In this document: positions 9,113-64,000 of the stretch, piece after piece
Layout of the letters: each line of letters starts with the position of its first letter
How positions within the stretch are numbered: position 1 is the stretch's first letter
Sequence record: NC_100331.1
Reading direction: 5' to 3' (one strand)
Length of the DNA: 64,000 bases
Origin: Escherichia phage vB_EcoS_HASG4
The notes under the pieces: model-generated
What the model saw: the letters and a program-made list of their open reading frames with translations, nothing else
Databases searched by the model: none
What the model was told of the DNA's origin: nothing
Program-made: the position numbers and the translations under genes

Positions 9113-9385
9113 GTGAAAAAGATAAATATAAGTACACTTAAACCTTTTCCATATATCGGACAGCCTCTCATACTCATGTGGGAGGAAAAGATTAATGGGG
9201 AAAAGTATACTAAAACTAGAATTGGATATAAACTGATTTCACTTTATTACGAAAAAGAAGTATTAATAGCTGAAATATACTCTCCATTATCGGGCAGGCT
9301 AGTAAAAACTACATATTTGCATCTTTGCAAAAATTATACGTGGCACGGATCTACCAGACAACCCACGTACTATGAGGCAGAATAA
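9113..9385 (+). CDS. hypothetical protein
   Basis: ORF with GTG start right after the promoter/SD; no motif. Confidence 0.3.
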   Translation: MKKINISTLKPFPYIGQPLILMWEEKINGEKYTKTRIGYKLISLYYEKEVLIAEIYSPLSGRLVKTTYLHLCKNYTWHGSTRQPTYYEAE

Positions 9386-10357
9386 ATGACCAATGTAAAA
9401 GAATTTATTAAACGCTGTCAAGAAGCATATTATCAGGGTATGTCTTTAATCTCTGATGAGGAGTATGATTGCCTGGTAAAACGCTTCCCGTTAGAAGAAG
9501 AGATCGGGCCTAAGGGCGATATTCCACATCTGTATCGTATGTATTCTTTACAGAAAGTTTATTATAATCGTGGAGATAAACCCCCATTTAACCCATTAGG
9601 TCAGGTAGAAACTGACAAGTTAGATGGTTGTGCGATTTCTCTATTATATATTAATGGCGAATTTGTTCAAGCACTAACTCGTGGTAATGGTATTCTAGGG
9701 AATGATGTCACAAGCAACGTAAGACTGCTGAATATCCCTAAAAAGATTTCCCAAAAAGTACCAACTCAAATCACTGGTGAAGTTCTAATTACAAAAGAAG
9801 TAGAAAATAAACGTAACTTTGCCTCTGGTGCTATTAACCTCAAAGATAGCGATGATTTCGTACAACGTATCGGGGAAGGCGGTTTAATCTTCGTTGCATA
9901 CGGTATCCAGTGTTCTGCCGAATCTGTAGGTATTACAGAATCGTATTTAAAAGATATGCTTTGGCTAGAGAATGAGAACTTCTTAACAGTTGTTAATGTG
10001 CGTTCCTTCTTTAAATGGATTCCGACTGACGGTAAAGTTGTTCGTATTAATGACAACAACAAATTCTTCCGTGAGGGCTGGACAAATAAATTCCCTCGTG
10101 GAGCATTCGCCATTAAAGAGGATGAAGAAGGCGAAATTACAACTCTTACTAAAGTTGAGTGGCAGGTAGGGGCTTCTGGTAAAGTAACTCCAGTTGGCTA
10201 TTTCGAACCGGTAATTATTGATGATGCTACAATTGTTAAAGCGACTCTTAATAACGTTGATTATATTAACTCTCTCGATCTAGAGATCGGTTGCCAGATT
10301 CGAGTGATTCGTGCTGGTGGTGTAATCCCGTGTATAGTAGAGCGAGTATACGATTAA
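9386..10357 (+). CDS. NAD-dependent DNA ligase, N-terminal (adenylation/OB) subunit
   Basis: ETDKLDGCAIS carries the KxDG adenylation-lysine motif of LigA-type ligases; length fits the nucleotidyltransferase plus OB domains only. Confidence 0.75.
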   Translation: MTNVKEFIKRCQEAYYQGMSLISDEEYDCLVKRFPLEEEIGPKGDIPHLYRMYSLQKVYYNRGDKPPFNPLGQVETDKLDGCAISLLYINGEFVQALTRGNGILGNDVTSNVRLLNIPKKISQKVPTQITGEVLITKEVENKRNFASGAINLKDSDDFVQRIGEGGLIFVAYGIQCSAESVGITESYLKDMLWLENENFLTVVNVRSFFKWIPTDGKVVRINDNNKFFREGWTNKFPRGAFAIKEDEEGEITTLTKVEWQVGASGKVTPVGYFEPVIIDDATIVKATLNNVDYINSLDLEIGCQIRVIRAGGVIPCIVERVYD

Positions 10358-10407
10358 TACATAACCCTTTGCTACCCATCTACCATATCGGAATTATAAA
10401 GTGGTTA

Positions 10408-10436
10408 TTGACATTTTCGCCGCTTAGGTATATACT
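10408..10436 (+). promoter_or_regulatory. consensus sigma70 promoter
   Basis: TTGACA (10408-10413), 17-nt spacer, TATACT (10431-10436). Confidence 0.55.
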
Positions 10437-10500
10437 ATTATCATTCAGTTGAGGGATAGAAAGTTATGGCGAGGGTAAGCAAAGTTAGTTAAAATTGTAG

Positions 10501-10556
10501 TTGCTAAATGCTTAAATACTTGCTATAATATTTATATAAATTGATAAGGAAGAAAT
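10501..10556 (+). promoter_or_regulatory. strong early promoter (T5-like family, extended -10)
   Basis: TTGCTA-N17-TGcTATAAT (10524-10529), then ATTTATATAAATTGATAAGGAAG. Confidence 0.55.
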
Positions 10557-10559
10557 TTG

Positions 10560-11339
10560 ATGAAAATCGAAATTCCAACACAATGTCCCTCTTGTGGTTC
10601 TAAGCTAGATCTTGTCAACGGACAATTATTCTGTCGTAATAAGTCCAACTGTCCAGCGCAATCAAGCAAGTTAATTGAGAACTTCTGTTCAAAAATGAAG
10701 TTAAAGGGCTTTGGCCCAAAAACTATTGAGAAGCTGGAGCTGACGAAGATTTCAGAACTATTTTACCTAACCGAAGAAGATTTGGTTAGAGCCGTGGGTA
10801 GCAAGGTTGCCGCTAAGTTAATTAGCGAATTAAATACTAAAGTTCGCGGAGACATTGACTTTGGTTCAGTTCTCGGTTCTTTAGGAATCCCTCTAATTGG
10901 AGAAGTTGCAGCAAAGAAACTATCCCAAAATTGCACTAGCTTCCATGATGTGAAGGCTGACGGCAAGGCTGGAGAAAATTACAAAGCCTGGCTAAATTCC
11001 CCACAAGGCAAGGATGTTATTGAACTACCGTGGAAATTTTCAACTGGTGTTAAGGGCACTAAAGCTGACGTCATCATTACAGATGAATTAGTTGCCCAGC
11101 CAAATGGAATCGCGGTATGTATTACCGGATCTTTGCAAGATTTTGCAAATCGAACGGATGCAACAAACTATTTAGAAGGTCTAGGATATACGGTTAAGAA
11201 ATCCGTTACCAAAGACGTCAAATACCTAATCTGTGAGGATGAATCGAAGCGTTCTTCCTCATCTTATAAGAAAGCCGAAACGAATGGGATAGAAATCCTG
11301 TCGATTAAAGAACTATTGGAGAAAAATAATAATGTCTAA
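10560..11339 (+). CDS. NAD-dependent DNA ligase, C-terminal subunit (zinc finger, HhH, BRCT-like)
   Basis: CPSCGSKLDLVNGQLFCRNKSNCPAQ is the LigA C4 zinc finger; downstream G-hairpin-G-like segments; ATG at 10560 with AAGGAAG SD. Confidence 0.75.
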   Translation: MKIEIPTQCPSCGSKLDLVNGQLFCRNKSNCPAQSSKLIENFCSKMKLKGFGPKTIEKLELTKISELFYLTEEDLVRAVGSKVAAKLISELNTKVRGDIDFGSVLGSLGIPLIGEVAAKKLSQNCTSFHDVKADGKAGENYKAWLNSPQGKDVIELPWKFSTGVKGTKADVIITDELVAQPNGIAVCITGSLQDFANRTDATNYLEGLGYTVKKSVTKDVKYLICEDESKRSSSSYKKAETNGIEILSIKELLEKNNNV

Positions 11340-53693: not shown

Positions 53694-53858
53694 TTGGGAA
53701 ATCTCGAAATTTCATAAGATTACACATGGAGGTGTGCTCACTGCCTCCGGCGGAAATACTTAGTCTGCTAACCGCCACCCTCCGTTACTATTACCATGCT
53801 AACTGTTTCACCCTGCAACCATTTTAATTGCAAGGTGAAACAATTTCAACTTTAATTG

Positions 53859-54593
53859 TTAGGCAACTTTTAATTTCTCAATATATTGTTGCGGGCTGCA
53901 ACTATATTCTGCGCGTTCTTCCTCGGTCATACTTTCCCAACATAATTGCAGGCGGTCGGCTAGAAATTGATAATCATTATCATCCTCAAGAGATTCATCA
54001 ATAAAGGTTTCACCTATCAATGTAACCCCAATCGATAGAATATCGTTAATAGCTTGCGCGTCCAGCGTTTTAAATCCGTATGATGCCGCCGCTGATAGTA
54101 CGCCTTTATGATCATCAATCATCGTAAAATCAGCGTTAGGATATAACTGTTTAAATAGCTCAAAATAATGGCTTTTATAAATAGCGTCTTTACTGTGGTA
54201 TATTTCGCTAACTTTATCAGCTTCAAAATATTTGTGTAGTGTATCGCGGGAAAACACGCGGATATTGCTTTTATCACGACCGCGCAAGCCTTGTTTGCGC
54301 AAGAAATAATAATCCGACTTGCTCATCAATCGAGCGGTGCAAATAATGTTTAACGTGTTAACGTCATTCATGCACTGGCGCATATATGTAACAAGCGGCA
54401 ATAGTGTATCTTGCATTATTAAATCATGTTTGCAGGCTTCATTTTTATACTTATTTAAATCTAAATTGCCCTCACTATCAAAGCAAGGCGCTACACGATG
54501 GAAAGAGTTAATGATAGTGCCATCCAGATCCCAAATCATGACGCGGGAAATATGTGGGAAGCTGCGGGAAATATTCATAATAGCTTTATTCAT
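53859..54593 (-). CDS. dmp: HAD-family 5'-deoxyribonucleotidase (dmp-like)
   Basis: N-terminal MIWDLDGTIINS carries HAD motif I DxDGT; 244 aa, the size I recall for T5 Dmp. Confidence 0.6.
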   Translation of the reverse strand: MNKAIMNISRSFPHISRVMIWDLDGTIINSFHRVAPCFDSEGNLDLNKYKNEACKHDLIMQDTLLPLVTYMRQCMNDVNTLNIICTARLMSKSDYYFLRKQGLRGRDKSNIRVFSRDTLHKYFEADKVSEIYHSKDAIYKSHYFELFKQLYPNADFTMIDDHKGVLSAAASYGFKTLDAQAINDILSIGVTLIGETFIDESLEDDNDYQFLADRLQLCWESMTEEERAEYSCSPQQYIEKLKVA

Positions 54594-54672
54594 TTGTTAC
54601 GTTCTCCATTAAAGGGATTAGATTAATTCAGCATTACCCGCTATTTATAAGCGGGTAATAATAAATTAACTA

Positions 54673-55068
54673 TTAAAGACCATAAGCCAACGCATCAGCG
54701 ATAAAACTAACATCCTCACCGGATACGCTGGAACGAATCCCGGCACAAGTATATACCTTTGCGCTGATCAATTGATCATCGAGGCAAGCGGGGCAAGGCG
54801 CAACCACTGCGAAAGCTAAACCGGATTTTACCGCGTCAATAATAATTGTTTCCTGCTTCATCGTGTCAACATAAACACCTTTTGCTTTAATATGGCTGGT
54901 TAGTTTACCTTGCATATATGCAAACGTTGTAACTTGCATTGCATCATTGAAATCTAACAATTCATCAATAACGTGCCCCGCCTCGACGTGGTAACGTTCA
55001 CCATTAGAATAAACCAGAACAATGGAAGACTGAGCGCGGTCAAATGGAATGCGATTAGATTTAGCCAT
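54673..55068 (-). CDS. hypothetical protein
   Basis: Intact ORF with the conserved leader upstream; contains HVE and PCPAC but with non-canonical spacing. Confidence 0.4.
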   Translation of the reverse strand: MAKSNRIPFDRAQSSIVLVYSNGERYHVEAGHVIDELLDFNDAMQVTTFAYMQGKLTSHIKAKGVYVDTMKQETIIIDAVKSGLAFAVVAPCPACLDDQLISAKVYTCAGIRSSVSGEDVSFIADALAYGL

Positions 55069-55105
55069 GTTTATAACTCCAGTTAGTTTAATAAGGGGGT
55101 TTAAT

Positions 55106-55363
55106 TTACTTGATAATAATCTGCATTTGATATGGCGTTAATTCACCATTTACGGGTAAATTATTATCACTCAACCACTCATAAAAAGCGTCATCATCGT
55201 CAAAGGGAACAATATCATTATCACGATAATCGACCGTAATAATCCCATCTGTATTAGTTTTGGCGGCTAGGATAGGTCCGAAGCTGTAAACTTTATCGGA
55301 TTCCATTTCATCCGGTGAAATAAATGCTTTTTCGTCCAGCGTTTTGGGTAATGTAACTTTCAT
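55106..55363 (-). CDS. hypothetical acidic protein
   Basis: 85-aa ORF, Asp-rich. Confidence 0.35.
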   Translation of the reverse strand: MKVTLPKTLDEKAFISPDEMESDKVYSFGPILAAKTNTDGIITVDYRDNDIVPFDDDDAFYEWLSDNNLPVNGELTPYQMQIIIK

Positions 55364-55420
55364 TCTAATTTAGCTCCTGTAATAGCGGCTATATTTCAAG
55401 CCGCTAGGGGAATAATTTAA

Positions 55421-57085
55421 TTACGCGAAAAATTTACCATTCTTAAAGTCAATCAAGGTGCGCTGACCGTTTGCATAGGTAATAACATGCGTTTGTGTCC
55501 AGCTTGACGCGCCAACGTTATAACCCATGTCCAGACTACCAGACACGCCAGCGGTGTATACGCCGCCGTAAATACTGGCGGTATGAGTGTGCCCCGTGTT
55601 TAATTTGCCCAATTTCTTAAACTGTTTCGGATTGCCACGGCTGCCGTTTATGCCGTTGTGACCGTGTACGCCGCATTCAATGCCTGCAATCTTGAAAGAT
55701 TGATCAGTGGTCAGAAAAATAGCGTTAAACTCACAACCTGCAACCTTACGCAGCGCATAATCTAGCACGTTGAAAGTATCGTCTTTTTCTGCAATAGCTC
55801 CATAAATCGCAGCATTAAGGCGGTGATATAGTTCCGCGTTTGCTGGGTCGTCTTTAATGTTAGCATTACGATCATCCAGCCAACGGGATAGCGCCAAATC
55901 GTGGTTTGATTCAACAATGATCGTTTGAGCAAAATCGCGCTCCATCGATTCCAGCACGCGCCCGGTATCGATAAGATCATCCAGAACTTTATCACGTCCG
56001 GCGGCGTATTGTTTCGCTAGGAATACACCGGAGGCACGATTATGATGATTGCGTGATGTAAAATCATGCACGTCATGGACGAATTGATATTTTGGCTTGA
56101 GAATATCAAGCAAGCTATTTTCCCCAGCCCATGATGCAACGGCGCAAGCGTCATCCAATTTTTCGGCGTGGACGTCGCCATATTGTAAACCTAAAACGTG
56201 CCCCGATGTTTCATAGCATCCGGCGGGAGTAGCGCAAACATTCAGATCATAAAATACGCCGCTTTCATCCATCGTTTCAAGCTGGCGAACAAAAAATTCT
56301 CCGTCTTCGTCGAACTCGACAATAAGCGCACCGAAGTTATGCAGCGCCTCGGCCTTTTGTCCTGCTTTCTGCTGGATGTAGTTTTTTAACGTTGCCGTTC
56401 CGGTTGAATACATACGGCGCACAATTTCACCTTTTAAAGCTGGCACGCTTTCAGCGGTAATTTTAGCCGCTCCGATTGCCAGACCTTCGAGATTAAGCGC
56501 GGTTGCAGTTTCAGCGAATCCAGAAAGCGGATAATCTGCGGTGGGCAAAACATTAATTTCAGCCATGAAAGCAAAACGGCGATTGTTTAAAAATACGTTT
56601 TTGCTGCAAATATATTTATCAAACGCAGAATCATATTTGATTCCGTCTGCCCCTTCCCCATTTTGAAAACCGTTTTTATTATAAATATACTTAGAAACAA
56701 GCAAATCAGCGCCAATAAATTGGGCATATTGTTCAAGCGAGGCTAAAAAGTTTTTATGCGGGAAAGTATTATTCTGAATCGATGTAATAATAAAGCGTTT
56801 GCCTTGTTTTACTTCCCATTGCTCCACCGTGCTAGAAATAACTCCAGCGGCTTCAGGGCGGTCATCGTTTTTTATGGCTTTTGCTGTTTTTGCCGCTTTT
56901 GGTTTCGCTGGTTTATTTGCTTCCAACCAGTCGCAGATAGCGGTCGAGTGTTTTGTAGTATCGTATACCGCTTTTGATATATCGTCGCAGACTTCCAGTT
57001 TAGTAGCGCGCAGACGTTTACCATAGAAATTAAAGTCAGCGGCAAGGTTGAGAATCTGGGCTTGTTTTTCTGCGGAAATAATCAT
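55421..57085 (-). CDS. A1: A1-like pre-early protein, calcineurin-like metallophosphoesterase
   Basis: Phosphoesterase-type motifs GDVH, SNHD, GHTHT; 554 aa, close to what I recall for T5 A1; conserved leader upstream. Confidence 0.6.
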   Translation of the reverse strand: MIISAEKQAQILNLAADFNFYGKRLRATKLEVCDDISKAVYDTTKHSTAICDWLEANKPAKPKAAKTAKAIKNDDRPEAAGVISSTVEQWEVKQGKRFIITSIQNNTFPHKNFLASLEQYAQFIGADLLVSKYIYNKNGFQNGEGADGIKYDSAFDKYICSKNVFLNNRRFAFMAEINVLPTADYPLSGFAETATALNLEGLAIGAAKITAESVPALKGEIVRRMYSTGTATLKNYIQQKAGQKAEALHNFGALIVEFDEDGEFFVRQLETMDESGVFYDLNVCATPAGCYETSGHVLGLQYGDVHAEKLDDACAVASWAGENSLLDILKPKYQFVHDVHDFTSRNHHNRASGVFLAKQYAAGRDKVLDDLIDTGRVLESMERDFAQTIIVESNHDLALSRWLDDRNANIKDDPANAELYHRLNAAIYGAIAEKDDTFNVLDYALRKVAGCEFNAIFLTTDQSFKIAGIECGVHGHNGINGSRGNPKQFKKLGKLNTGHTHTASIYGGVYTAGVSGSLDMGYNVGASSWTQTHVITYANGQRTLIDFKNGKFFA

Positions 57086-57183
57086 GGTAATAAAACTCCA
57101 TTAAAGGGATTAAAAAACGTTTGTTATTGGCAAATATTGCCAAATATAACGCCTATTATTTGAGGCGTTATAATTTGCAATAT

Positions 57184-57399
57184 TTAACTAATCGGCATCA
57201 GGCTAGAACTAACACCACAAGCAACGGCGGCAATAAAACAAATAAGACCTAAACGCTTTGCTAACTTAGATTTACGTTTAAAATAATATGAATCCAGATC
57301 ATTTTGGAAATAAGCAAACAATAACGAGGCCGCTACAATAAATAATCCTAGAATGAGGGATTCAGTAGGGTAAAAGATCATTTTAATAACTCCAGTCAA
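57184..57399 (-). CDS. small membrane protein (two hydrophobic segments)
   Basis: 71-aa ORF between the A2-like and A1-like genes. Confidence 0.35.
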   Translation of the reverse strand: MTGVIKMIFYPTESLILGLFIVAASLLFAYFQNDLDSYYFKRKSKLAKRLGLICFIAAVACGVSSSLMPIS

Positions 57400-57437
57400 A
57401 GGAAATTATAGTGGGGAGTATTCCCCACTAATTAAAT

Positions 57438-57845
57438 TTATTCACCTGCGGCCTGTTTTACTTCATCGGCAACGCCCAATAGTTGCGCCACGGCGTCCAA
57501 CGTTTCTAATTTTGCGCTTTCCAGTGATGCCAGATCGTCAACGTCTTTGATAATACCGGAATCGATGGCATGTTTTGCAATAACGCGCACATAATGCGCT
57601 TTGCGGATAGAACTGCCGCCGCCAACCTTGCGAGGTTTATCGCTTTTCTGATACGCTTTCGCGCTGGTCAATTTTGAGCGAACGGACACGGGAGAAGCCG
57701 CACCTACTGCTTTCGCGATCTCTTTCAAGCCGTCGCTATTTGCGAAATCTAAACCGTTTTCATTGATTAGCTGCTGATACATGGTAACAGCCTGCTGGGT
57801 GTTTTCTTCATTCCAAGAAAATTTTACGGTTTTAACGTTAGTCAT
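57438..57845 (-). CDS. A2: A2-like pre-early protein
   Basis: 135-aa ORF immediately upstream of the A1-like gene; size and position match T5 A2 as I recall it. Confidence 0.45.
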   Translation of the reverse strand: MTNVKTVKFSWNEENTQQAVTMYQQLINENGLDFANSDGLKEIAKAVGAASPVSVRSKLTSAKAYQKSDKPRKVGGGSSIRKAHYVRVIAKHAIDSGIIKDVDDLASLESAKLETLDAVAQLLGVADEVKQAAGE

Positions 57846-57943
57846 GGTAAAAACTCCTATTAGTTTAATTTAAGGGATAAGATTAACATAATGTTAATCG
57901 TTATATACCCCGAACTACTGGGGTATATAAAGTTAACACTAAA

Positions 57944-58195
57944 TTACAAAACAGCTTCCCATTTTTCGTTGCGTTGAACAACCTTTACAACATCGCCGGA
58001 TTTAACGCGAACGCTAAAAACGGTTTTGCCGTTGTTACTGCGTTCCGTTTCAGCGTATACCGCGTCGATTGTATCGAACGGCATAAGCGCCGCACCTTTA
58101 ATGCGTTCGGCCTTTCCGGTTAACTCATCCGTTTTAGTAACGAAAGGAATAAAAACGGATTGACCAATTTTTGGCGCGGTAATAACGTTTTGCAT
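57944..58195 (-). CDS. hypothetical protein
   Basis: 83-aa ORF with the conserved leader and AGGAG SD. Confidence 0.4.
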   Translation of the reverse strand: MQNVITAPKIGQSVFIPFVTKTDELTGKAERIKGAALMPFDTIDAVYAETERSNNGKTVFSVRVKSGDVVKVVQRNEKWEAVL

Positions 58196-58422
58196 AGTAT
58201 AAACTCCTAGTTATTTGGGGATTATTCCGCATTACCTGCTAGAAGGTAGCAGGTAATAAGTAACAATCCGCTCGCCAGTTTAACCAATTTAAAGAACTCC
58301 ACGTAGGCCGCTATATCCCAGTTAGGGGGCGGGATGCATTATGGTAAGCACCGACCGTCAAATTTTATCAAGTTATCGCTCTTATCGAACTGAGTACATC
58401 TTAAAACCTATCGGCTAGGTTG

Positions 58423-58626
58423 TCAAACGGTTTTTTGCAATTTTTTATGATTTTCTTTCAAGTCAATCATAATATTTCGCCAGATCATTTCTAGACCTTG
58501 CTGGCGACCTCTCTTGTACTGCGTGAATCGGTATTTTACCGATCTTTGCGCTACTGTCAACAAATTTTTTGTTTTGCTATCTAGTGCCTTAATAGGCTTG
58601 CCAGTGATCAATAAAGTTTGTTTCAT
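58423..58626 (-). CDS. hypothetical small basic protein (uncertain)
   Basis: 67-aa ORF inside the large intergenic region; weak SD. Confidence 0.2.
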   Translation of the reverse strand: MKQTLLITGKPIKALDSKTKNLLTVAQRSVKYRFTQYKRGRQQGLEMIWRNIMIDLKENHKKLQKTV

Positions 58627-59256
58627 ATCGTCGATTCCTTATAATAGATAAGTTTACCGCCGATAGGCTTTAAGATGTACCCAATTTTTAAAGAGCGTGG
58701 CGGTAAACTTCCCGCCGTGTAGTTCGTCATTGCCGCCCTACGTGATAAATAATAGGGGATTCCCGAAAATGGCGCAACCTTATTTTTGTAAAGAAACGTA
58801 AAGACAAAATTCACCGGACGGCGTGCGGTGACGGCCTAAAATTAAAAGAAACGGGCGCGCGAATACCACAAAACAAAGCAAATAGGCAAGTAATTTTTTC
58901 ATTTATATTTGCTTTCCCCTACTTGACAAAATCTAAAAAGCTCGTGGTAGCGATAAACGGCTTATCCCCTTATGATGGGATGGCTAAAAACTTTATTGCG
59001 TTCTAGGGCGTTTTAGGCGGCTCATTTTCGATTTAACAAATATCTAACAAAAGCAAAATTGAAAAATAGTTGAAAAAGGTCTTGACTTTTAAAAATCAAG
59101 GGGCATTGCATTAATTTATAAAATAAATTAATTGACTTTTATTTGTTGTTGTGTATTAGAAAGATAGCAAACTAATAATTACTAGAATGATAATCATGCT
59201 GGTGGATTGTAACGGCTTAAATTATTAGCAGACTACTAATCCCGGAAAATCTCATT

Positions 59257-59310
59257 AGCCAACTAACTGTTTCATAAGTTATAATATACATATAAATTAA
59301 TGAGAAATAA
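59257..59310 (+). promoter_or_regulatory. promoter-like element of the T5 family (weak -35)
   Basis: GTTATAAT with TATAAT at 59280-59285, then ATACATATAAATTAATGAGAAA. Confidence 0.35.
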
Positions 59311-59419
59311 TAATTATAAGAAAACGTAACCGATAGGAATAATAACTATAAAAATAATCACTACTATAATAATAACTATAAGAAACTATCGGCCTAAGTG
59401 AGAACCACTATCATTTAAG

Positions 59420-59440
59420 TTATCCACAAAGTTATCCACA
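59420..59440 (+). promoter_or_regulatory. two perfect DnaA boxes (TTATCCACA) in direct repeat
   Basis: TTATCCACA at 59420-59428 and 59432-59440, just downstream of an AT-rich repeat tract. Confidence 0.6.
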
Positions 59441-59794
59441 GCACTTTTTGACTTGACACGATATGCGGCGATACAAGGACTTTTGCTCAGACTTACCCAC
59501 AGGTTATCCTACTGTATAAATATACAAGGTAAAAAGATAGTGTTAACAACTGCAATCAATTTTAAGCGGCCTAAATCGCTTTCTAACGAGCAAAACGCTG
59601 TAGGGTAATATTAAAGTAAAGCCTCAACGTGTCGGCCTGGTGGCTTCGCCGTGTTTTGCTCTTTACTATACCGCTGCGCGGTTAGCATAAAAATAAGCGT
59701 TAGGCAAGGAAAATAAAAAGGTAAAATAATATTTGCCCCTAGAAAGAAAATACCTTTATCATTCACTCACCGATTAACGAGGGAGGCCGAACAA

Positions 59795-60787
59795 ATGAGG
59801 CTTTATAAACCAGATAACGCAACCGTCTTAAAAGGTGCATTGCGCAACCTGCTGGATGGTAGCAGAACAACCAGCATTAAACATTTTGTTTTCAATATTG
59901 AAACACTTCATCGTAATTTTCTTGATGATTACGATGCTTATAATATGAATAGTTTTCTACCGTTATATAATCAAGGGGCAACGCTTGTTTTATATAATCA
60001 GGAATCTCACTTGCTTACTAGTCGAGGGCCAGATACTGATTTTATTATAGTGAAAGGCAGTACAGTAAAAGCCTATGATGCGGGGGCGGGCTTAGAAGTT
60101 TTCACGATAGAAAATTATGAGCCTTATGATAAGGATCTTTATGACGTAGAAAATTTTCTCGATTCATTTTGGCGTTATTTATCAATTGGGTGGAATCGGT
60201 CGGATTATGACGGGTATCGTTTTGCGGCTGTAATGGCTTTTGATGATAACGGTAATTTTTTGTTACCGTCGGAATTATACCCGTATGTATATAATGATTT
60301 AATAGAGGAGGCTGGTTTTACTTTCTGGAAAGATGAAGATCAGCCTATTGACAATATAGAAAACCATGCTGTAAATTCTAACACTCAAAGCGTTAACACT
60401 CAAACTACTGAAAACAAAGGAAAAAATACCATGACCAAGATCGCTAATATCGTTGCCGCTAATAAATCCGCTGTTGTAAATGCTGCAAAACTGGAAGCGG
60501 GTAAAATTGCACTGACTCAAATCACGAAAGTAGCGGCTAAAAAAGCGCCGTTTATGATTAAAGGTTATATTGATACGCCGATTGGTCGTGTAGTGATCGC
60601 TAACCTATTGAGTGTAGCGGTTGACCAGTACGCCCCAACTAACCAAAAGGCAAAAGCGGTAGCAGGCGCGGCTATGGAAGCGGCAATGCTGGAAATGGTG
60701 CAAAGTTTTAACATCGCTGAAATGATTGATGAAATGGTAAAAGGTATCGATATTTCTACTTTTACCACTAACACCGAAAGCGAGTAA
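59795..60787 (+). CDS. hypothetical protein
   Basis: 330-aa ORF with GAGG SD; first gene of a rightward cluster. Confidence 0.45.
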   Translation: MRLYKPDNATVLKGALRNLLDGSRTTSIKHFVFNIETLHRNFLDDYDAYNMNSFLPLYNQGATLVLYNQESHLLTSRGPDTDFIIVKGSTVKAYDAGAGLEVFTIENYEPYDKDLYDVENFLDSFWRYLSIGWNRSDYDGYRFAAVMAFDDNGNFLLPSELYPYVYNDLIEEAGFTFWKDEDQPIDNIENHAVNSNTQSVNTQTTENKGKNTMTKIANIVAANKSAVVNAAKLEAGKIALTQITKVAAKKAPFMIKGYIDTPIGRVVIANLLSVAVDQYAPTNQKAKAVAGAAMEAAMLEMVQSFNIAEMIDEMVKGIDISTFTTNTESE

Positions 60788-60852
60788 TAATATTTAGCGG
60801 GGATTATTTCCCCGCTTTACTATTCCCTTGTTAACTAATAGGAGGCTAACTA

Positions 60853-61347
60853 ATGGCTGAGGAAAAATACGGCTTCTCGCTAGGGGAAGTGAGCACGGCT
60901 AAACACGATATGATCATTTTAGTTGATTGTCATACTGGCTATTGCGGGGAAGGGAACACCGAAGAATATTTTGTTCCTGCTGGTACGGATCTGGACGCTT
61001 TAGCTCACGAAATGGCTATGGATAATGCTTCTCGTTTTGGCAGCGATGGCTATGAAGACGAGGATACTGGCGAATGGTATGAAAATGAAAACGTATACGC
61101 AAGTCTTTATCATTATCAGTTAAGTAAATCCGGCACATATGTAAATGGCGGCGATCCTATTAATTCCGTTGTGAAATTAATTATTAAATATGGTGGCGTC
61201 GAGATAATTGATAACAAAGCGGTAATATATGCAAACCGATTAAAACAGCTTGTTTATATTCCTGATAATACCCGATGGGAGGAATACGCTGTTTTGCATG
61301 ACGAATTGAAACGATGTTTCAATATTGAAGCCCTACAAGTAGTCTAA
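60853..61347 (+). CDS. hypothetical acidic protein
   Basis: 164-aa ORF with AGGAGG SD; Asp/Glu-rich. Confidence 0.45.
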   Translation: MAEEKYGFSLGEVSTAKHDMIILVDCHTGYCGEGNTEEYFVPAGTDLDALAHEMAMDNASRFGSDGYEDEDTGEWYENENVYASLYHYQLSKSGTYVNGGDPINSVVKLIIKYGGVEIIDNKAVIYANRLKQLVYIPDNTRWEEYAVLHDELKRCFNIEALQVV

Positions 61348-61452
61348 TGTAAAGTTTTGTAAAGGTCGCCTTTTATGGTGGCCTTTTTTGTTATAATGCC
61401 TTTACACCAAAACGGTGGATTGAAAATTTTCCCAAAAATTTGGAGGCTTAAA

Positions 61453-61683
61453 ATGGTTGCATACTCTTCTGCTAGTCATCTGTTTACCGCGCAAGGCTGG
61501 GTATCTAATCGCGTCATTATTCATGAAATGGTGCAGGAGTTCGGCATTGCTAAAACGTATAATACCATTCAGGAACTATATAACGCCGATAAAATCGATC
61601 AGCAAACGGCTGGCTTTTTGCTGGATACCCTGAAAGCTGAACATTGCACTAAAAAGCAAGCTGCAAAAATTGTCTTAATGTAA
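61453..61683 (+). CDS. hypothetical protein
   Basis: Internal ATG at 61453 with GGAGG SD; the track's 61375 start lacks an SD. Confidence 0.4.
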   Translation: MVAYSSASHLFTAQGWVSNRVIIHEMVQEFGIAKTYNTIQELYNADKIDQQTAGFLLDTLKAEHCTKKQAAKIVLM

Positions 61684-61736
61684 TTAATAACGGGGGGGGG
61701 GTATTATATCCCCCGATAACTAGGAGGCTATCACAA

Positions 61737-61886
61737 ATGGTTATTTTTCGAGCTATTTTAGCGGGTATCTTGGGCGCTATTTTATCGTTATTTGCAATAG
61801 CTTTCGGTGTTCACGCCGTTATTATCGGCGCGGGTATCGCCGCATTTTCTTATCTGCTGGGCTGCATGACTAGTAAAGGAGAATAA
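61737..61886 (+). CDS. small membrane protein (49 aa)
   Basis: TAGGAGG SD 9 nt upstream; two hydrophobic segments; preceded by a G10 tract. Confidence 0.4.
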   Translation: MVIFRAILAGILGAILSLFAIAFGVHAVIIGAGIAAFSYLLGCMTSKGE

Positions 61887-61888
61887 AA

Positions 61889-62101
61889 ATGATTCGTAAC
61901 GTTTCCCTTGCACGTTCGAAAGGCTTTAGGCTGGTGGACGTTAACACGTTCGAGCGTGAAGATTGTAAAATCGAATATGTAGCACGTAACAAAAATGCCT
62001 TTCGTGTTACTGAGAAAAAATTCGACAAGCGCGGCAACGTGATCGCTGAAACAGTTAAACATTTTGCCACCTTTTATGCTGCGTTTCGTGGGGTATTATA
62101 A
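61889..62101 (+). CDS. hypothetical protein
   Basis: 70-aa ORF with GGAG SD, immediately after the previous stop. Confidence 0.4.
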   Translation: MIRNVSLARSKGFRLVDVNTFEREDCKIEYVARNKNAFRVTEKKFDKRGNVIAETVKHFATFYAAFRGVL

Positions 62102-62102
62102 A

Positions 62103-62447
62103 ATGGTTATTTATGAAGGCAACCGCTTTGTTACTAATTGCCGTCCGGCATTACTAGCAAACTACTTAAATCAGCTTTCCCCAGCTTATAAGGGCGTTAT
62201 TAATATTTATGAGGGCAAGGCGCATTATAAAATCAATGCGGTCGTTGCCCGTGAACTAGCGTTTCAATTTTTGACCTTTGCATCTTGTGACGTTCAGGTC
62301 ATGGGTGAGGCATTAATTGCAGAAAATGAAGATGATTTTATTAATATTTTCCGCAAGATATGCACCGAGCGCCTGATCATGAAAGGCGCTTATATTCAAT
62401 CCACTGCGGATAGTATTGAAACAGCGTTTCGAAAGGTGGCACAATGA
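62103..62447 (+). CDS. hypothetical protein
   Basis: ATG at 62103 directly after the upstream stop; 114 aa. Confidence 0.4.
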   Translation: MVIYEGNRFVTNCRPALLANYLNQLSPAYKGVINIYEGKAHYKINAVVARELAFQFLTFASCDVQVMGEALIAENEDDFINIFRKICTERLIMKGAYIQSTADSIETAFRKVAQ

Positions 62448-62602
62448 AAAAGTTTTTAATAGCTGGTATGTTTCCTTTGTTGCCTTATGTAATTTGCTGG
62501 GCTTTATATGCTCATGGTGCTAGTGTTCCCGGTGTGGCTTCATTTGGTGTATCGGCTGGTTTTCTAACCGGACTATTGGCAAGCGTATATTTACGCAAAT
62601 AA
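62444..62602 (+). CDS. small membrane protein (52 aa)
   Basis: ATG overlapping the upstream stop; two hydrophobic segments. Confidence 0.35.
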   Translation: MKKFLIAGMFPLLPYVICWALYAHGASVPGVASFGVSAGFLTGLLASVYLRK

Positions 62603-62620
62603 TTAATAACGGGAGTTATT

Positions 62621-62824
62621 ATGAGCAATAAAATTATTGTAACCAAAATCAGTACAATGGTTGATGTTTTTTACGTGCCCGATACGCCGGAGAATCGGCA
62701 AGCGGTTGAGCGTGGCGAGTATGATAAAGTGATTTATGATCACGATGGTTATTATCAGCATTTGGCGGATTCCTACGGGGAGGAGGAAAAAATCACGCAT
62801 CGACTACCGGAGGAGGATTTATGA
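62621..62824 (+). CDS. hypothetical protein
   Basis: 67-aa ORF with GGGAG SD. Confidence 0.4.
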   Translation: MSNKIIVTKISTMVDVFYVPDTPENRQAVERGEYDKVIYDHDGYYQHLADSYGEEEKITHRLPEEDL

Positions 62825-62925
62825 AACGATGGTTTAATCACTGGTATAAACGGTTTTTAGTACGCCGTCGCAAGTCTAGGCATCAAGATGAGTGGAGGGA
62901 GTGGGCAAAGCGTAACGGTTGCCCA
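62821..62925 (+). CDS. hypothetical small basic protein (uncertain)
   Basis: 34-aa Arg/Trp-rich ORF overlapping the previous stop. Confidence 0.2.
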
Positions 62926-62975
62926 CTACTATAATAATCACGGGGCGCAACTAGTAAGAAGTGCCCCCAATTCTC

Positions 62976-62996
62976 AAATGAGAATCATTCTCATTT
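62976..62996. repeat. perfect 21-bp palindrome AAATGAGAATCATTCTCATTT
   Basis: Read directly; the two 10-bp arms are exact reverse complements around a central C. Confidence 0.8.
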
Positions 62997-63190
62997 GACC
63001 GCGCCCGCGATGATTAGCCTGCTAATGGTTAGGGTGTTACGTGTCGCCTTGTGTGATCGTTAGCGTGCTAACTAATTTTCAAGCCTCCTCCAATTTTCCC
63101 CTTGTTTTAGTATCCCCGCCAAAATTAAACGCGTTAGAATGCGATTCAGGACGTTTTAAGCCTATATTAGAATTATTCACTGCATAGGAA

Positions 63191-63210
63191 TACTGTATAT
63201 TTATACAGTA
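63191..63210. promoter_or_regulatory. LexA-box-like palindrome TACTGTATATTTATACAGTA
   Basis: Fits CTGT-N8-ACAG with an all-AT spacer; one mismatch to TACTGTATATATATACAGTA. Confidence 0.5.
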
Positions 63211-63222
63211 GAATAACCTGGG

Positions 63223-63301
63223 GATAAGTCTGTGGATAACGCTTCAAAATGGCTAGGGTTCTGTCAAGTCAAATCGTGCTGTTGATAAGTCTGTGGATAA
63301 C
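63223..63301. repeat. exact 18-bp direct repeat GATAAGTCTGTGGATAAC x2, each with a DnaA box (TGTGGATAA)
   Basis: Copies at 63223-63240 and 63284-63301. Confidence 0.75.
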
Positions 63302-63332
63302 TTAAATAACAGTGTTTCTCACTTCCGTTTTT

Positions 63333-63500
63333 AAATGCGAATCATTATCATTCGCATTTCACTAGCTAACCGATAATCACTCCACTTTTTAAATGAGAAT
63401 CATTTCACTTCTTGAATAGTTCTCATTCCCTTTCTTAAATGCAAATCATTATCATTCGCATTTCACTTTTTAAATGAGATTGATTCTCATTATCATTCGC
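63333..63500. repeat. cluster of palindromes built from AAATG(C/A)GAAT half-sites
   Basis: AAATGCGAATCATTATCATTCGCATTT (63333-63359), AAATGAGAA...TTCTCATT (63391-63427), AAATGCAAATCATTATCATTCGCATTT (63437-63463), AAATGAGATTGATTCTCATT (63472-63491). Confidence 0.75.
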
Positions 63501-63533
63501 ATTCAGGCGAGCAAGGCAATTGCCCTGCGCTTT

Positions 63534-63757
63534 TGTGCAAATCCGACATTTGCCCCCATGGATTACGCGTGGGCATGTATGTGCGAATCCGACAATTTTT
63601 GGTAGTGTGCAAATCCGACCCGAAAAATTTTTATAGTGTGCGAATCCGACAATGAATTTTCCTAAAAACTCCAGCAATCACGAACTGCGTTCGAATCCTG
63701 TGGAATTAGCTAGAGTATGTGCAAATCCGACATGTGTTGAGCTGTGCGAATCCGACA
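63534..63757. repeat. six direct 15-bp iterons TGTGC(G/A)AATCCGAC(A/C)
   Basis: Copies start at 63534, 63580, 63606, 63637, 63718, 63743; spacings 46, 26, 31, 81, 25 bp; a degenerate copy (CGTTCGAATCC) near 63690. Confidence 0.8.
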
Positions 63758-64000
63758 AGATTTTTGTGACTTCGATTGGAGGGTGTGTGATTGTATAGGT
63801 TTGAGGAGAAGATGAGAGAGCGAGAGAAATTTTGGGACTAGAAGGATGTGGGCGCAAGATTGGTGCGGAGCACCTGATTTGCGGGGATTTTGGGGGAGAG
63901 TTGAGATAATTTGGGAAGATTTGAGATAGGTGCAGAAAAAGTAAAATTTTATTAGCTAAATGGAGCAAAATAGCTTGACAAGTGAAAATTCTTGTGGCTC

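Follow-up and report, generated by a model that had tools for sequence, protein, structure and literature searches.

The stretch of DNA analysed here, referred to below as the window, comprises 64,000 nucleotides of Escherichia phage vB_EcoS_HASG4 (sequence record NC_100331.1), and this report concerns a family of palindromes built from AAATG(A/C)GAAT half-sites that lies near its right end (positions 62976 to 63500). A sequence search revealed 100% identity between the window and the genome of Escherichia phage vB_EcoS_EASG3 (EASG3), a T5-like Tequintavirus. The query was found twice in the EASG3 record, indicating that it lies in the direct terminal repeats. The terminal repeat covers window positions 53774 to 64000 (16% of the window), with the palindromes at its untranslated inner (right) end, and in the EASG3 record the interval between the last pre-early open reading frame (ORF) and the first early gene (9161-10898) carries no annotated coding sequence. 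The end of the window coincides exactly with the annotated end of the long terminal repeat (LTR) in phage MM-1 and also maps onto the LTR end of T5 (64000). The MM-1 record annotates a dozen ORFs of 30 to 50 codons across the region (locus L002, 2940-4441), which are probably over-calls because the T5 curators regard the region as untranslated.

A preliminary description, made from the letters of the sequence, had suggested that the palindromes may correspond to the first-step-transfer stop point of T5-type phages and had proposed a comparison with the injection-stop region of T5-like genomes. This comparison uncovered counterparts in T5 and its relatives and bore the suggestion out. T5 record NC_005859.1 places an "injection stop signal (iss)" at 9140-10149, with the major single-chain interruption on the minus strand, and T5 record AY587007.1 labels the homologous stretch with palindromes C to J, direct repeats B, C, and D (DRB, DRC, and DRD), inverted repeats C′ and D′ (IRC′ and IRD′), and a "7.9% nick." The alignment to T5 is collinear from about window position 63100 rightward, with approximately 93% identity over 725 aligned nucleotides, and the named T5 elements were recovered in order: palindrome D (palD), IRD′/IRC′ with DnaA boxes, DRC/DRE with palindromes E to I, palJ, the nick, and DRD. 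The same stretch has been described as "Repeat Region 3" in 25 T5-like phages in the Davison preprint (bioRxiv 10.1101/866236), which estimates the first-step-transfer shear point at T5 position 9618. This estimate maps to about window position 63479, within the palindrome array.

The palindromes are the DRC/DRE and palindrome E-to-I part of the T5-type injection-stop region, an assignment that leaves hardly any doubt. Both the feature itself and its T5 interpretation are already known and annotated in T5; the iss and "Repeat Region 3" are reportedly covered by Heusterspreute et al. in 1987 and, together with record AY587007.1, by Wang et al. in 2005. The features of the region are compiled in Table 1.

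Table 1. Palindromes, neighbouring elements, and A1/A2 genes in the window
Feature	Position	Strand	Sequence	Remarks
A1	55421-57085	minus		in the same terminal repeat as the array
A2	57438-57845	minus		in the same terminal repeat as the array
Isolated dyad	62976-62996		AAATGAGAAT-C-ATTCTCATTT	perfect, 21 bp; about 150 bp past the last pre-early ORF
T5 palindrome D (palD)	63191-63210		TACTGTATATTTATACAGTA	CTGT-N8-ACAG, LexA (SOS) box-like; outside the half-site family
T5 IRD′-spacer-IRC′ segment	63218-63301			two pairs of DnaA-box-like motifs
T5 palindrome E / DRC copy 1	63333-63359		AAATGCGAAT-CATTATC-ATTCGCATTT	arms 10/10, perfect; spacer 7
palE	63334-63358			transferred from T5 annotation
DRC copy 2	63391-63428		left half-site AAATGAGAAT, inverted partner GTTCTCATTC	spacer 18, imperfect
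T5 palindrome G / DRC copy 3 (left part of palindrome H)	63437-63463		AAATGCAAAT-CATTATC-ATTCGCATTT	spacer 7, one arm mismatch
palG / palH	63437-63492			transferred from T5 annotation
T5 palindrome I / DRC copy 4	63472-63492		AAATGAGATT-G-ATTCTCATTA	spacer 1
palI	63473-63492			transferred from T5 annotation
T5 palindrome J (palJ)	63511-63528		GGCAATTGCC core	transferred from AY587007.1
Major 7.9% single-strand nick	63523-63530		GCGC site	transferred from AY587007.1
Six DRD iterons	63534-63757	plus	TGTGCRAATCCGAC(A)	downstream of the array; separate repeat family

Dyad architecture and resemblance to Fur operators

Exact AAATGMGAAT sequences occur six times in the window, all six within 62976 to 63463. 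With one mismatch allowed, 24 were counted against 15.8 expected, a pooled number that is unremarkable in itself, the clustering being what stands out. Direct reading of the sequence and a repeat search both recovered the perfect 21-bp palindrome at the left end of the family, the latter extending it to 25 bp with 12-nt arms (62974-62998). The related inverted repeats noted in the preliminary description are likewise present; counting the perfect palindrome, the spacers of the family are 1, 7, 18, 7, and 1 bp, slightly different from the 7 to 20 bp given there. The isolated dyad has no counterpart in T5 at the equivalent position. In nine relatives it sits at −215 nt relative to palD without exception, and its variants among them are one-sided (GAGAAT to GATAAT, or C to G at the centre). 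The unit carrying DRC copy 1 consists of two overlapping dyads offset by 6 bp (centres at 63343 and 63349), DRC copy 3 similarly contains two dyads at a 6-bp offset, and DRC copy 4 is followed after 63492 by two further in-register ATTNNC hexamers that reach 63504 (TTCTCA TTATCA TTCGCA).

To describe the array across relatives, the homologous core was retrieved from 23 distinct T5-like phages (Tequintavirus, Epseptimavirus, and Sugarlandvirus) and from Pectobacterium phage DU_PP_V and Erwinia phage KEY. The order of elements is constant and runs from a LexA-like box through a DnaA-box pair, a 52-bp spacer, a second DnaA-box pair, and the AAATGMGAAT units to GGCAATTGCC...GCGC and the iterons, with the number of AAATGMGAAT units varying between relatives. 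Iterative construction of a matrix with no input other than the phage arrays (104 distinct 21-mers; consensus AAATGAGAATCATTCTCATTT) gave information peaks at AAT/ATT triplets placed 6 bp apart, the three positions between triplets being variable. Inverted half-site pairs are separated by spacers of 1, 7, 13, or 19 bp only, plus minor classes of 18 and 24 bp, which sets them in a 6-bp register. Rather than a set of independent hairpins, the array is thus a series of 21-bp dyads (consensus AAATGAGAAT-C-ATTCTCATTT), which either overlap or succeed one another, always in strict 6-bp register. This architecture is that of operator arrays for a dimeric repressor.

The preliminary description had left the choice between cruciforms and sites for a dimeric protein. 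Cruciforms should show compensatory changes in the two arms, which were not found. In the 25 arrays, the arms matched at the variable positions no better than upon random re-pairing (1.62 versus 1.78 of 3 positions for spacer 1, and 1.51 versus 1.53 for spacer 7), and orthologous dyads vary on one arm. Base identity at phased positions is therefore what is conserved, not base pairing, indicating a protein-binding array rather than a cruciform. Of the two options, the dimeric protein is favoured by the fixed triplets and the 6-bp register, and the cruciform is disfavoured by arms that do not covary; with considerable confidence, the dyads are protein sites rather than structural elements.

The Fur box (GATAATGATAATCATTATC) has been modelled both as hexamers and in a 7-1-7 form (TGATAATnATTATCA). 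The AAT-nnn-AAT-n-ATT-nnn-ATT pattern of the array, with units such as TGAGAAT-C-ATTCTCA, resembles this box, and the resemblance was tested with reciprocal matrices. A BLAST search of 5,426 E. coli genomes with the array as query returned no match; since the motif is too short for BLAST, regions of the K-12 genome were scanned with the matrix instead. In the 603- to 650-kb region of E. coli K-12, the phage matrix placed its top four matches, and six of its seven best, in the fepB/entC, fepD/entS, and fepA/fes bidirectional promoter regions, three Fur-controlled stretches that amount to 726 bp of the 47 kb (1.5%). Scans of three further 49-kb K-12 regions (fhuA, cirA, and tonB) ranked the fhuA promoter first in the fhuA region and placed the first and third matches of the cirA region in the cirA promoter.

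In the reverse direction, a palindromic 19-mer matrix was derived de novo and without phage input from six Fur-regulated K-12 promoters (fepA/fes, fepD/entS, fepB/entC, fhuA, cirA, and tonB; consensus AATGATAATAATTATCATT). This E. coli matrix and the phage matrix chose identical positions in all six promoters. When applied to the window, the E. coli matrix had its top three matches at 63438, 63334, and 62977 and eight of its 11 best within 62977 to 63500. The top match of the whole window, 23.2 bits, belongs to DRC copy 3; the two dyads of DRC copy 1 score 22.0 and 14.6 bits, the isolated dyad 21.5 bits (rank 3), and the 63472-63504 unit 18.7 and 17.8 bits. The top three palindromes reach 21 to 23 bits, compared with 15 to 23 bits for the training sites. 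The region holds five matches of at least 17 bits, a count that none of 1,000 dinucleotide shuffles reached (mean, 0.004), and none of 1,000 symmetry-preserving column permutations put six of their ten best matches there. The maximum in the 53.8 kb outside the terminal repeat was 14.7 bits. All 24 enterobacterial T5-like arrays carry two to seven sites of at least 14 bits, and in 10 kb of Erwinia phage KEY all 11 matches of at least 13 bits fall inside its array. By these matrix scores, the array motif cannot be distinguished statistically from Fur operators of E. coli, which suggests Fur as the probable binder of the array. Our literature search found no paper connecting Fur and T5, and the reading of the palindromes as Fur boxes in an operator array is without precedent in the searchable literature.

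Neighbouring elements and further Fur-like sites

The array is embedded between elements of other kinds. Upstream, palD (TACTGTATATTTATACAGTA) is one base off the textbook LexA/SOS box TACTGTATATATATACAGTA, and we take it to be LexA-like on the strength of that textbook consensus alone. This box is retained in all T5-like arrays read, including those of Sugarland, Erwinia phage KEY, and DU_PP_V, the last of which has a second copy too. Neither LexA nor SOS is mentioned in the Davison preprint (10.1101/866236). In the adjacent IRD′-spacer-IRC′ segment, the DnaA-box-like sequence TGTGGATAA occurs at 63231-63239 and 63292-63300, with the variants GGGGATAA and TTGATAA 3 bp upstream; the Davison preprint describes this segment for T5 and 25 relatives. 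On the other side of the array lies the DRD iteron TGTGCRAATCCGAC, whose conservation runs deeper than that of any other element in the region. It is found in T5-like phages of Vibrio, Erwinia, Pectobacterium, and Klebsiella, and the DRD iterons of T5 run beyond the terminal-repeat end. The coexistence of DnaA boxes and iterons had suggested a plasmid-type replication origin; this candidate was dropped upon identification of the DNA as a phage genome, with no match in the plasmid collection, and T5 replication origins map near the genome centre (10.1101/866236).

Repeat Region 3 of Salmonella phage Shivani is interrupted by an HNH homing endonuclease gene, which separates the array from the iterons downstream of it (L026, 1060-1599), indicating that the region tolerates a 0.5-kb insertion at this place. 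In Vibrio phage River4, other short repeats (CCGTATAAAAT and CACTACATTAG) occupy the place of the array between the iterons and the DnaA boxes (L042, 480-760), and these may be sites of a different host factor.

Scans for further signals in and near the array were negative or weak. No terminator-like sites were detected within 62970-63510, the only Rfam match lay upstream of the array (63098-63210) with an E value of 0.64, far under the gathering score, and a promoter consensus scan inside the array returned one weak match (9/12, plus strand, 63469-63496). Readings of the array as a terminator or an RNA element were rejected, the terminator and Rfam scans having found nothing in their favour.

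Fur-like sites also occur elsewhere in the terminal repeat. Of the 15 19-mers in the window with at most five mismatches to the Fur consensus, 14 lie in this 16% of the window, as do ten of the 11 matches of at least 14 bits with the E. coli matrix. The 3′ part of dmp (53859-54593, minus strand) contains GAAATTGATAATCATTATC at 53963-53987, which shares 17 of 19 positions with the textbook Fur 19-mer, scores 20.9 bits (rank 4 in the window), and is conserved in T5 (position 231, 18.0 bits). T5 remains viable when a dmp deletion leaves no more than the last ten codons (PMC8108384); this box is therefore dispensable. Vibrio phage River4 has a double Fur-type box just past its dmp gene (L042, 8034-8060), and several Fur-like sites of the terminal repeat fall in the divergent promoter region around 59180-59400. 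In K-12, strong matches to the Fur model beyond the training promoters were located at 189581 (map/rpsB intergenic region), 1300940 (upstream of oppA), and 1335451 (ymiA-yciX, upstream of acnA), corresponding to L039 44582 and to L041 12941 and 47452, respectively.

Phylogenetic spread and alternative explanations

BLAST searches with the array returned unexpected matches in non-coding DNA of unrelated Stephanstirmvirinae myoviruses, the phAPEC8-like phages REC, muut, and FBKp34. These loci carry three to five dyads of the same family, some of them textbook Fur units (TGATAAT-C-ATTCTCA), and the dyads are the sole Fur-model matches there. They form part of a conserved non-coding module (L033, 1270-1830; L036, 960-1590; L037, 880-1550) in which iteron-like AAAGTTT-type repeats and the Fur-type dyads are followed by a GC-rich stretch that is likewise conserved (GACGCGCAGG...CTCGCG...CCCCTCGCCAT). 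The opposite strand carries a near-consensus promoter (TTGACA-17-TATACT in L033, about 1795-1823) directed at the dyads. The module may represent a small RNA that has escaped annotation, or else a region of origin or packaging type.

This distribution bears on whether the binder is encoded by the host or by the phage. The array might consist of binding or cleavage sites of a phage-encoded dimer, either A2 or the A1/A2 complex. A2 is a known DNA-binding dimer needed for second-step transfer, and dyad symmetry suits a dimeric binder; no Pfam domain was found in it. In the Davison model, the A1/A2 complex cuts at a palindrome and thereby releases the stalled DNA, and palindromes D to J are named as candidate A1/A2 sites (10.1101/866236). 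Consistently with such a role, the A1 and A2 genes lie within the same terminal repeat as the array and are conserved in all T5-like phages, as indicated by tblastn and by the same preprint. However, the A2 homologues listed by tblastn come only from Demerecviridae-sized genomes, with none in Stephanstirmvirinae, where the dyad family is also present, whereas Vibrio T5-like phages carry A1 and A2 without the array. A2 as a binder common to both phage groups is thus unsupported by its phylogenetic distribution, and the array fits a host factor of Enterobacterales better. Together with a motif that the matrices do not tell apart from E. coli Fur operators, this renders a phage-encoded binder improbable.

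The palindromes could also act through secondary structure, an option named in PMC13250531; cruciforms, or hairpins near the nicked strand, would then physically obstruct the passage of DNA through the tail or envelope channel. Two units are perfect inverted repeats, which as single strands fold better than their shuffles (−8.9 and −8.5 kcal/mol, with z-scores of −4.5 and −7.8), within a range for single-strand folding of the units of −3 to −8.9 kcal/mol (z-scores of −2.8 to −7.8). Palindrome E further shows a symmetric G>A/C>T double change between this phage and T5, which the family-wide arm comparison reduces to an anecdote as far as covariation is concerned. Against structure stand, besides that comparison, the one-arm changes in orthologous dyads, and the conservation of base identity at fixed positions, the stems themselves, which are short (7 to 11 bp), AT-rich, and weak, one unit reaching just −3 kcal/mol. 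Moreover, the entering linear DNA would be without the superhelical tension needed for extrusion. We regard a structural mode of action as quite improbable.

Less probable still is a function in replication or packaging, in which the array and the DRD iterons would jointly form a terminase or end-recognition region. This idea draws on position, as the region is found at both genome ends, the identical copy in the right repeat is situated 0.5 to 1 kb short of the physical right end, where packaging is expected to begin, and the T5 DRD iterons flank the repeat boundary; the Stephanstirmvirinae dyads likewise lie beside iteron-like repeats in a non-coding stretch. Nevertheless, the element conserved family-wide, Vibrio phages included, is the iterons and not the dyads, and the likeness to Fur operators would be left unexplained. 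Finally, that this likeness is a by-product of AT-rich repeats grown by unit duplication, devoid of sequence-specific function, agrees with the AT-richness of the region and with the different unit numbers of close relatives, as slippage or duplication predicts, but is highly improbable given the clustering beyond all shuffles and symmetric column permutations, the persistence of the motif in subfamilies whose flanks no longer align, and its occurrence in an unrelated phage subfamily.

Possible role at the injection stop and comparison with known systems

Collectively, the palindromes are best read as operator-like sites for a dimeric protein, probably host Fur, placed beside a LexA-like box and DnaA boxes. 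Why T5 transfer stops after 8% of the genome, and how it restarts, is a question dating from the 1960s; papers of 2023 to 2026 still call the two-step mechanism unresolved, and those of 2026 list only "repeats, palindromes and DnaA boxes." The stop requires no phage protein synthesis and is absent with FhuA proteoliposomes (10.1101/866236), which implies a host component. The Davison preprint proposes membrane-bound DnaA as the stop factor and holds that the function of the palindromes cannot be guessed, save as possible A1/A2 cleavage sites.

Fur would be already in the cell as the DNA enters and would require no phage protein synthesis. As the first 8% of the genome enters, Fe-Fur dimers could coat about 170 bp of the array (63333-63504) and the isolated operator at 62976, while just upstream LexA would occupy palD and DnaA its boxes. 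The resulting nucleoprotein complex of Fur, LexA, and DnaA would sit at the transfer pause, with the 7.9% nick and the DRD iterons immediately beyond it, and might there add to the pause or block transcription, RNA polymerase, or translocases across the boundary until A1 and A2 act. We put this forward tentatively: that three host proteins already in the cell use the injection-stop region as a landing pad, Fur on the array, LexA on palD, and DnaA on its boxes, is a speculative proposal, and it is likewise doubtful that Fur binding, should it take place, matters for the injection stop.

Several observations weigh against Fur or against its importance here. The assignment derives from sequence alone, with a matrix trained on six promoters only, and the phage matrix ranks the tonB site only eighth in its region. 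The commonest phage variants, GAGAAT and GCGAAT, depart at a mirrored position from GATAAT, the Fur consensus, so that a different protein of related specificity is possible. Unit number ranges from two to seven between relatives; Vibrio phage River4 has A1, A2, iterons, and DnaA boxes but no array, and no more than one or two sites are present in a T5-like phage of Proteus, indicating that two-step transfer does not universally require the array. E. coli fur mutants are not known to be T5-resistant, which makes an essential role of Fur unlikely. Moreover, there is no evident way for a cytoplasmic protein on already-entered DNA to halt the DNA behind it.

What the analysis adds is that the palindromes behave as operator arrays and not as structural palindromes, leading to a concrete and cheaply testable Fur hypothesis. 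If it is true, Fur would be part of the long-sought host contribution to two-step transfer, with pause or release tied to the iron status of the cell, and the Fur-type arrays in unrelated large virulent enterobacterial phages would point to a more general strategy of Fur recruitment or titration. If Fur does not bind, AAT-nnn-AAT-n-ATT-nnn-ATT in 6-bp register remains the pattern that any binder must explain.

The closest known system, the T5 iss, shares with this phage the terminal-repeat position and the order of elements. They differ in the isolated dyad at 62976-62996, which is extra here and stands where T5 has a GC-rich terminator hairpin (palindrome C), and in the T5 unit AAATGAGAATCATT, which reads CTAACCGATAATCACT here; the remaining differences are ordinary, strain-level ones. 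The region is also reminiscent of oriC-type DnaA-box arrays, on which the DnaA model of the T5 stop by Davison is based and which similarly present dense sites for pre-existing host DNA-binding proteins in non-coding DNA, and DnaA boxes adjoin the array, whereas the array motif is not a DnaA box and there is no sign of replication initiation here. Unlike the Fur operator arrays of Enterobacteria, the phage array overlaps no recognisable promoter, lies in an untranslated region of a virulent phage, and prefers the inner hexamers GAGAAT or GCGAAT over GATAAT. With those arrays it nonetheless shares AAT/ATT triplets in a 6-bp register and dyads overlapping at 6-bp offsets, for which the "Fur binding site clusters" of Chen et al. 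2007 (PMC2189734), with their overlapping 6-bp (or 3-bp) register, offer the comparison, and its dyads score like genuine operators in the matrix derived from E. coli promoters.

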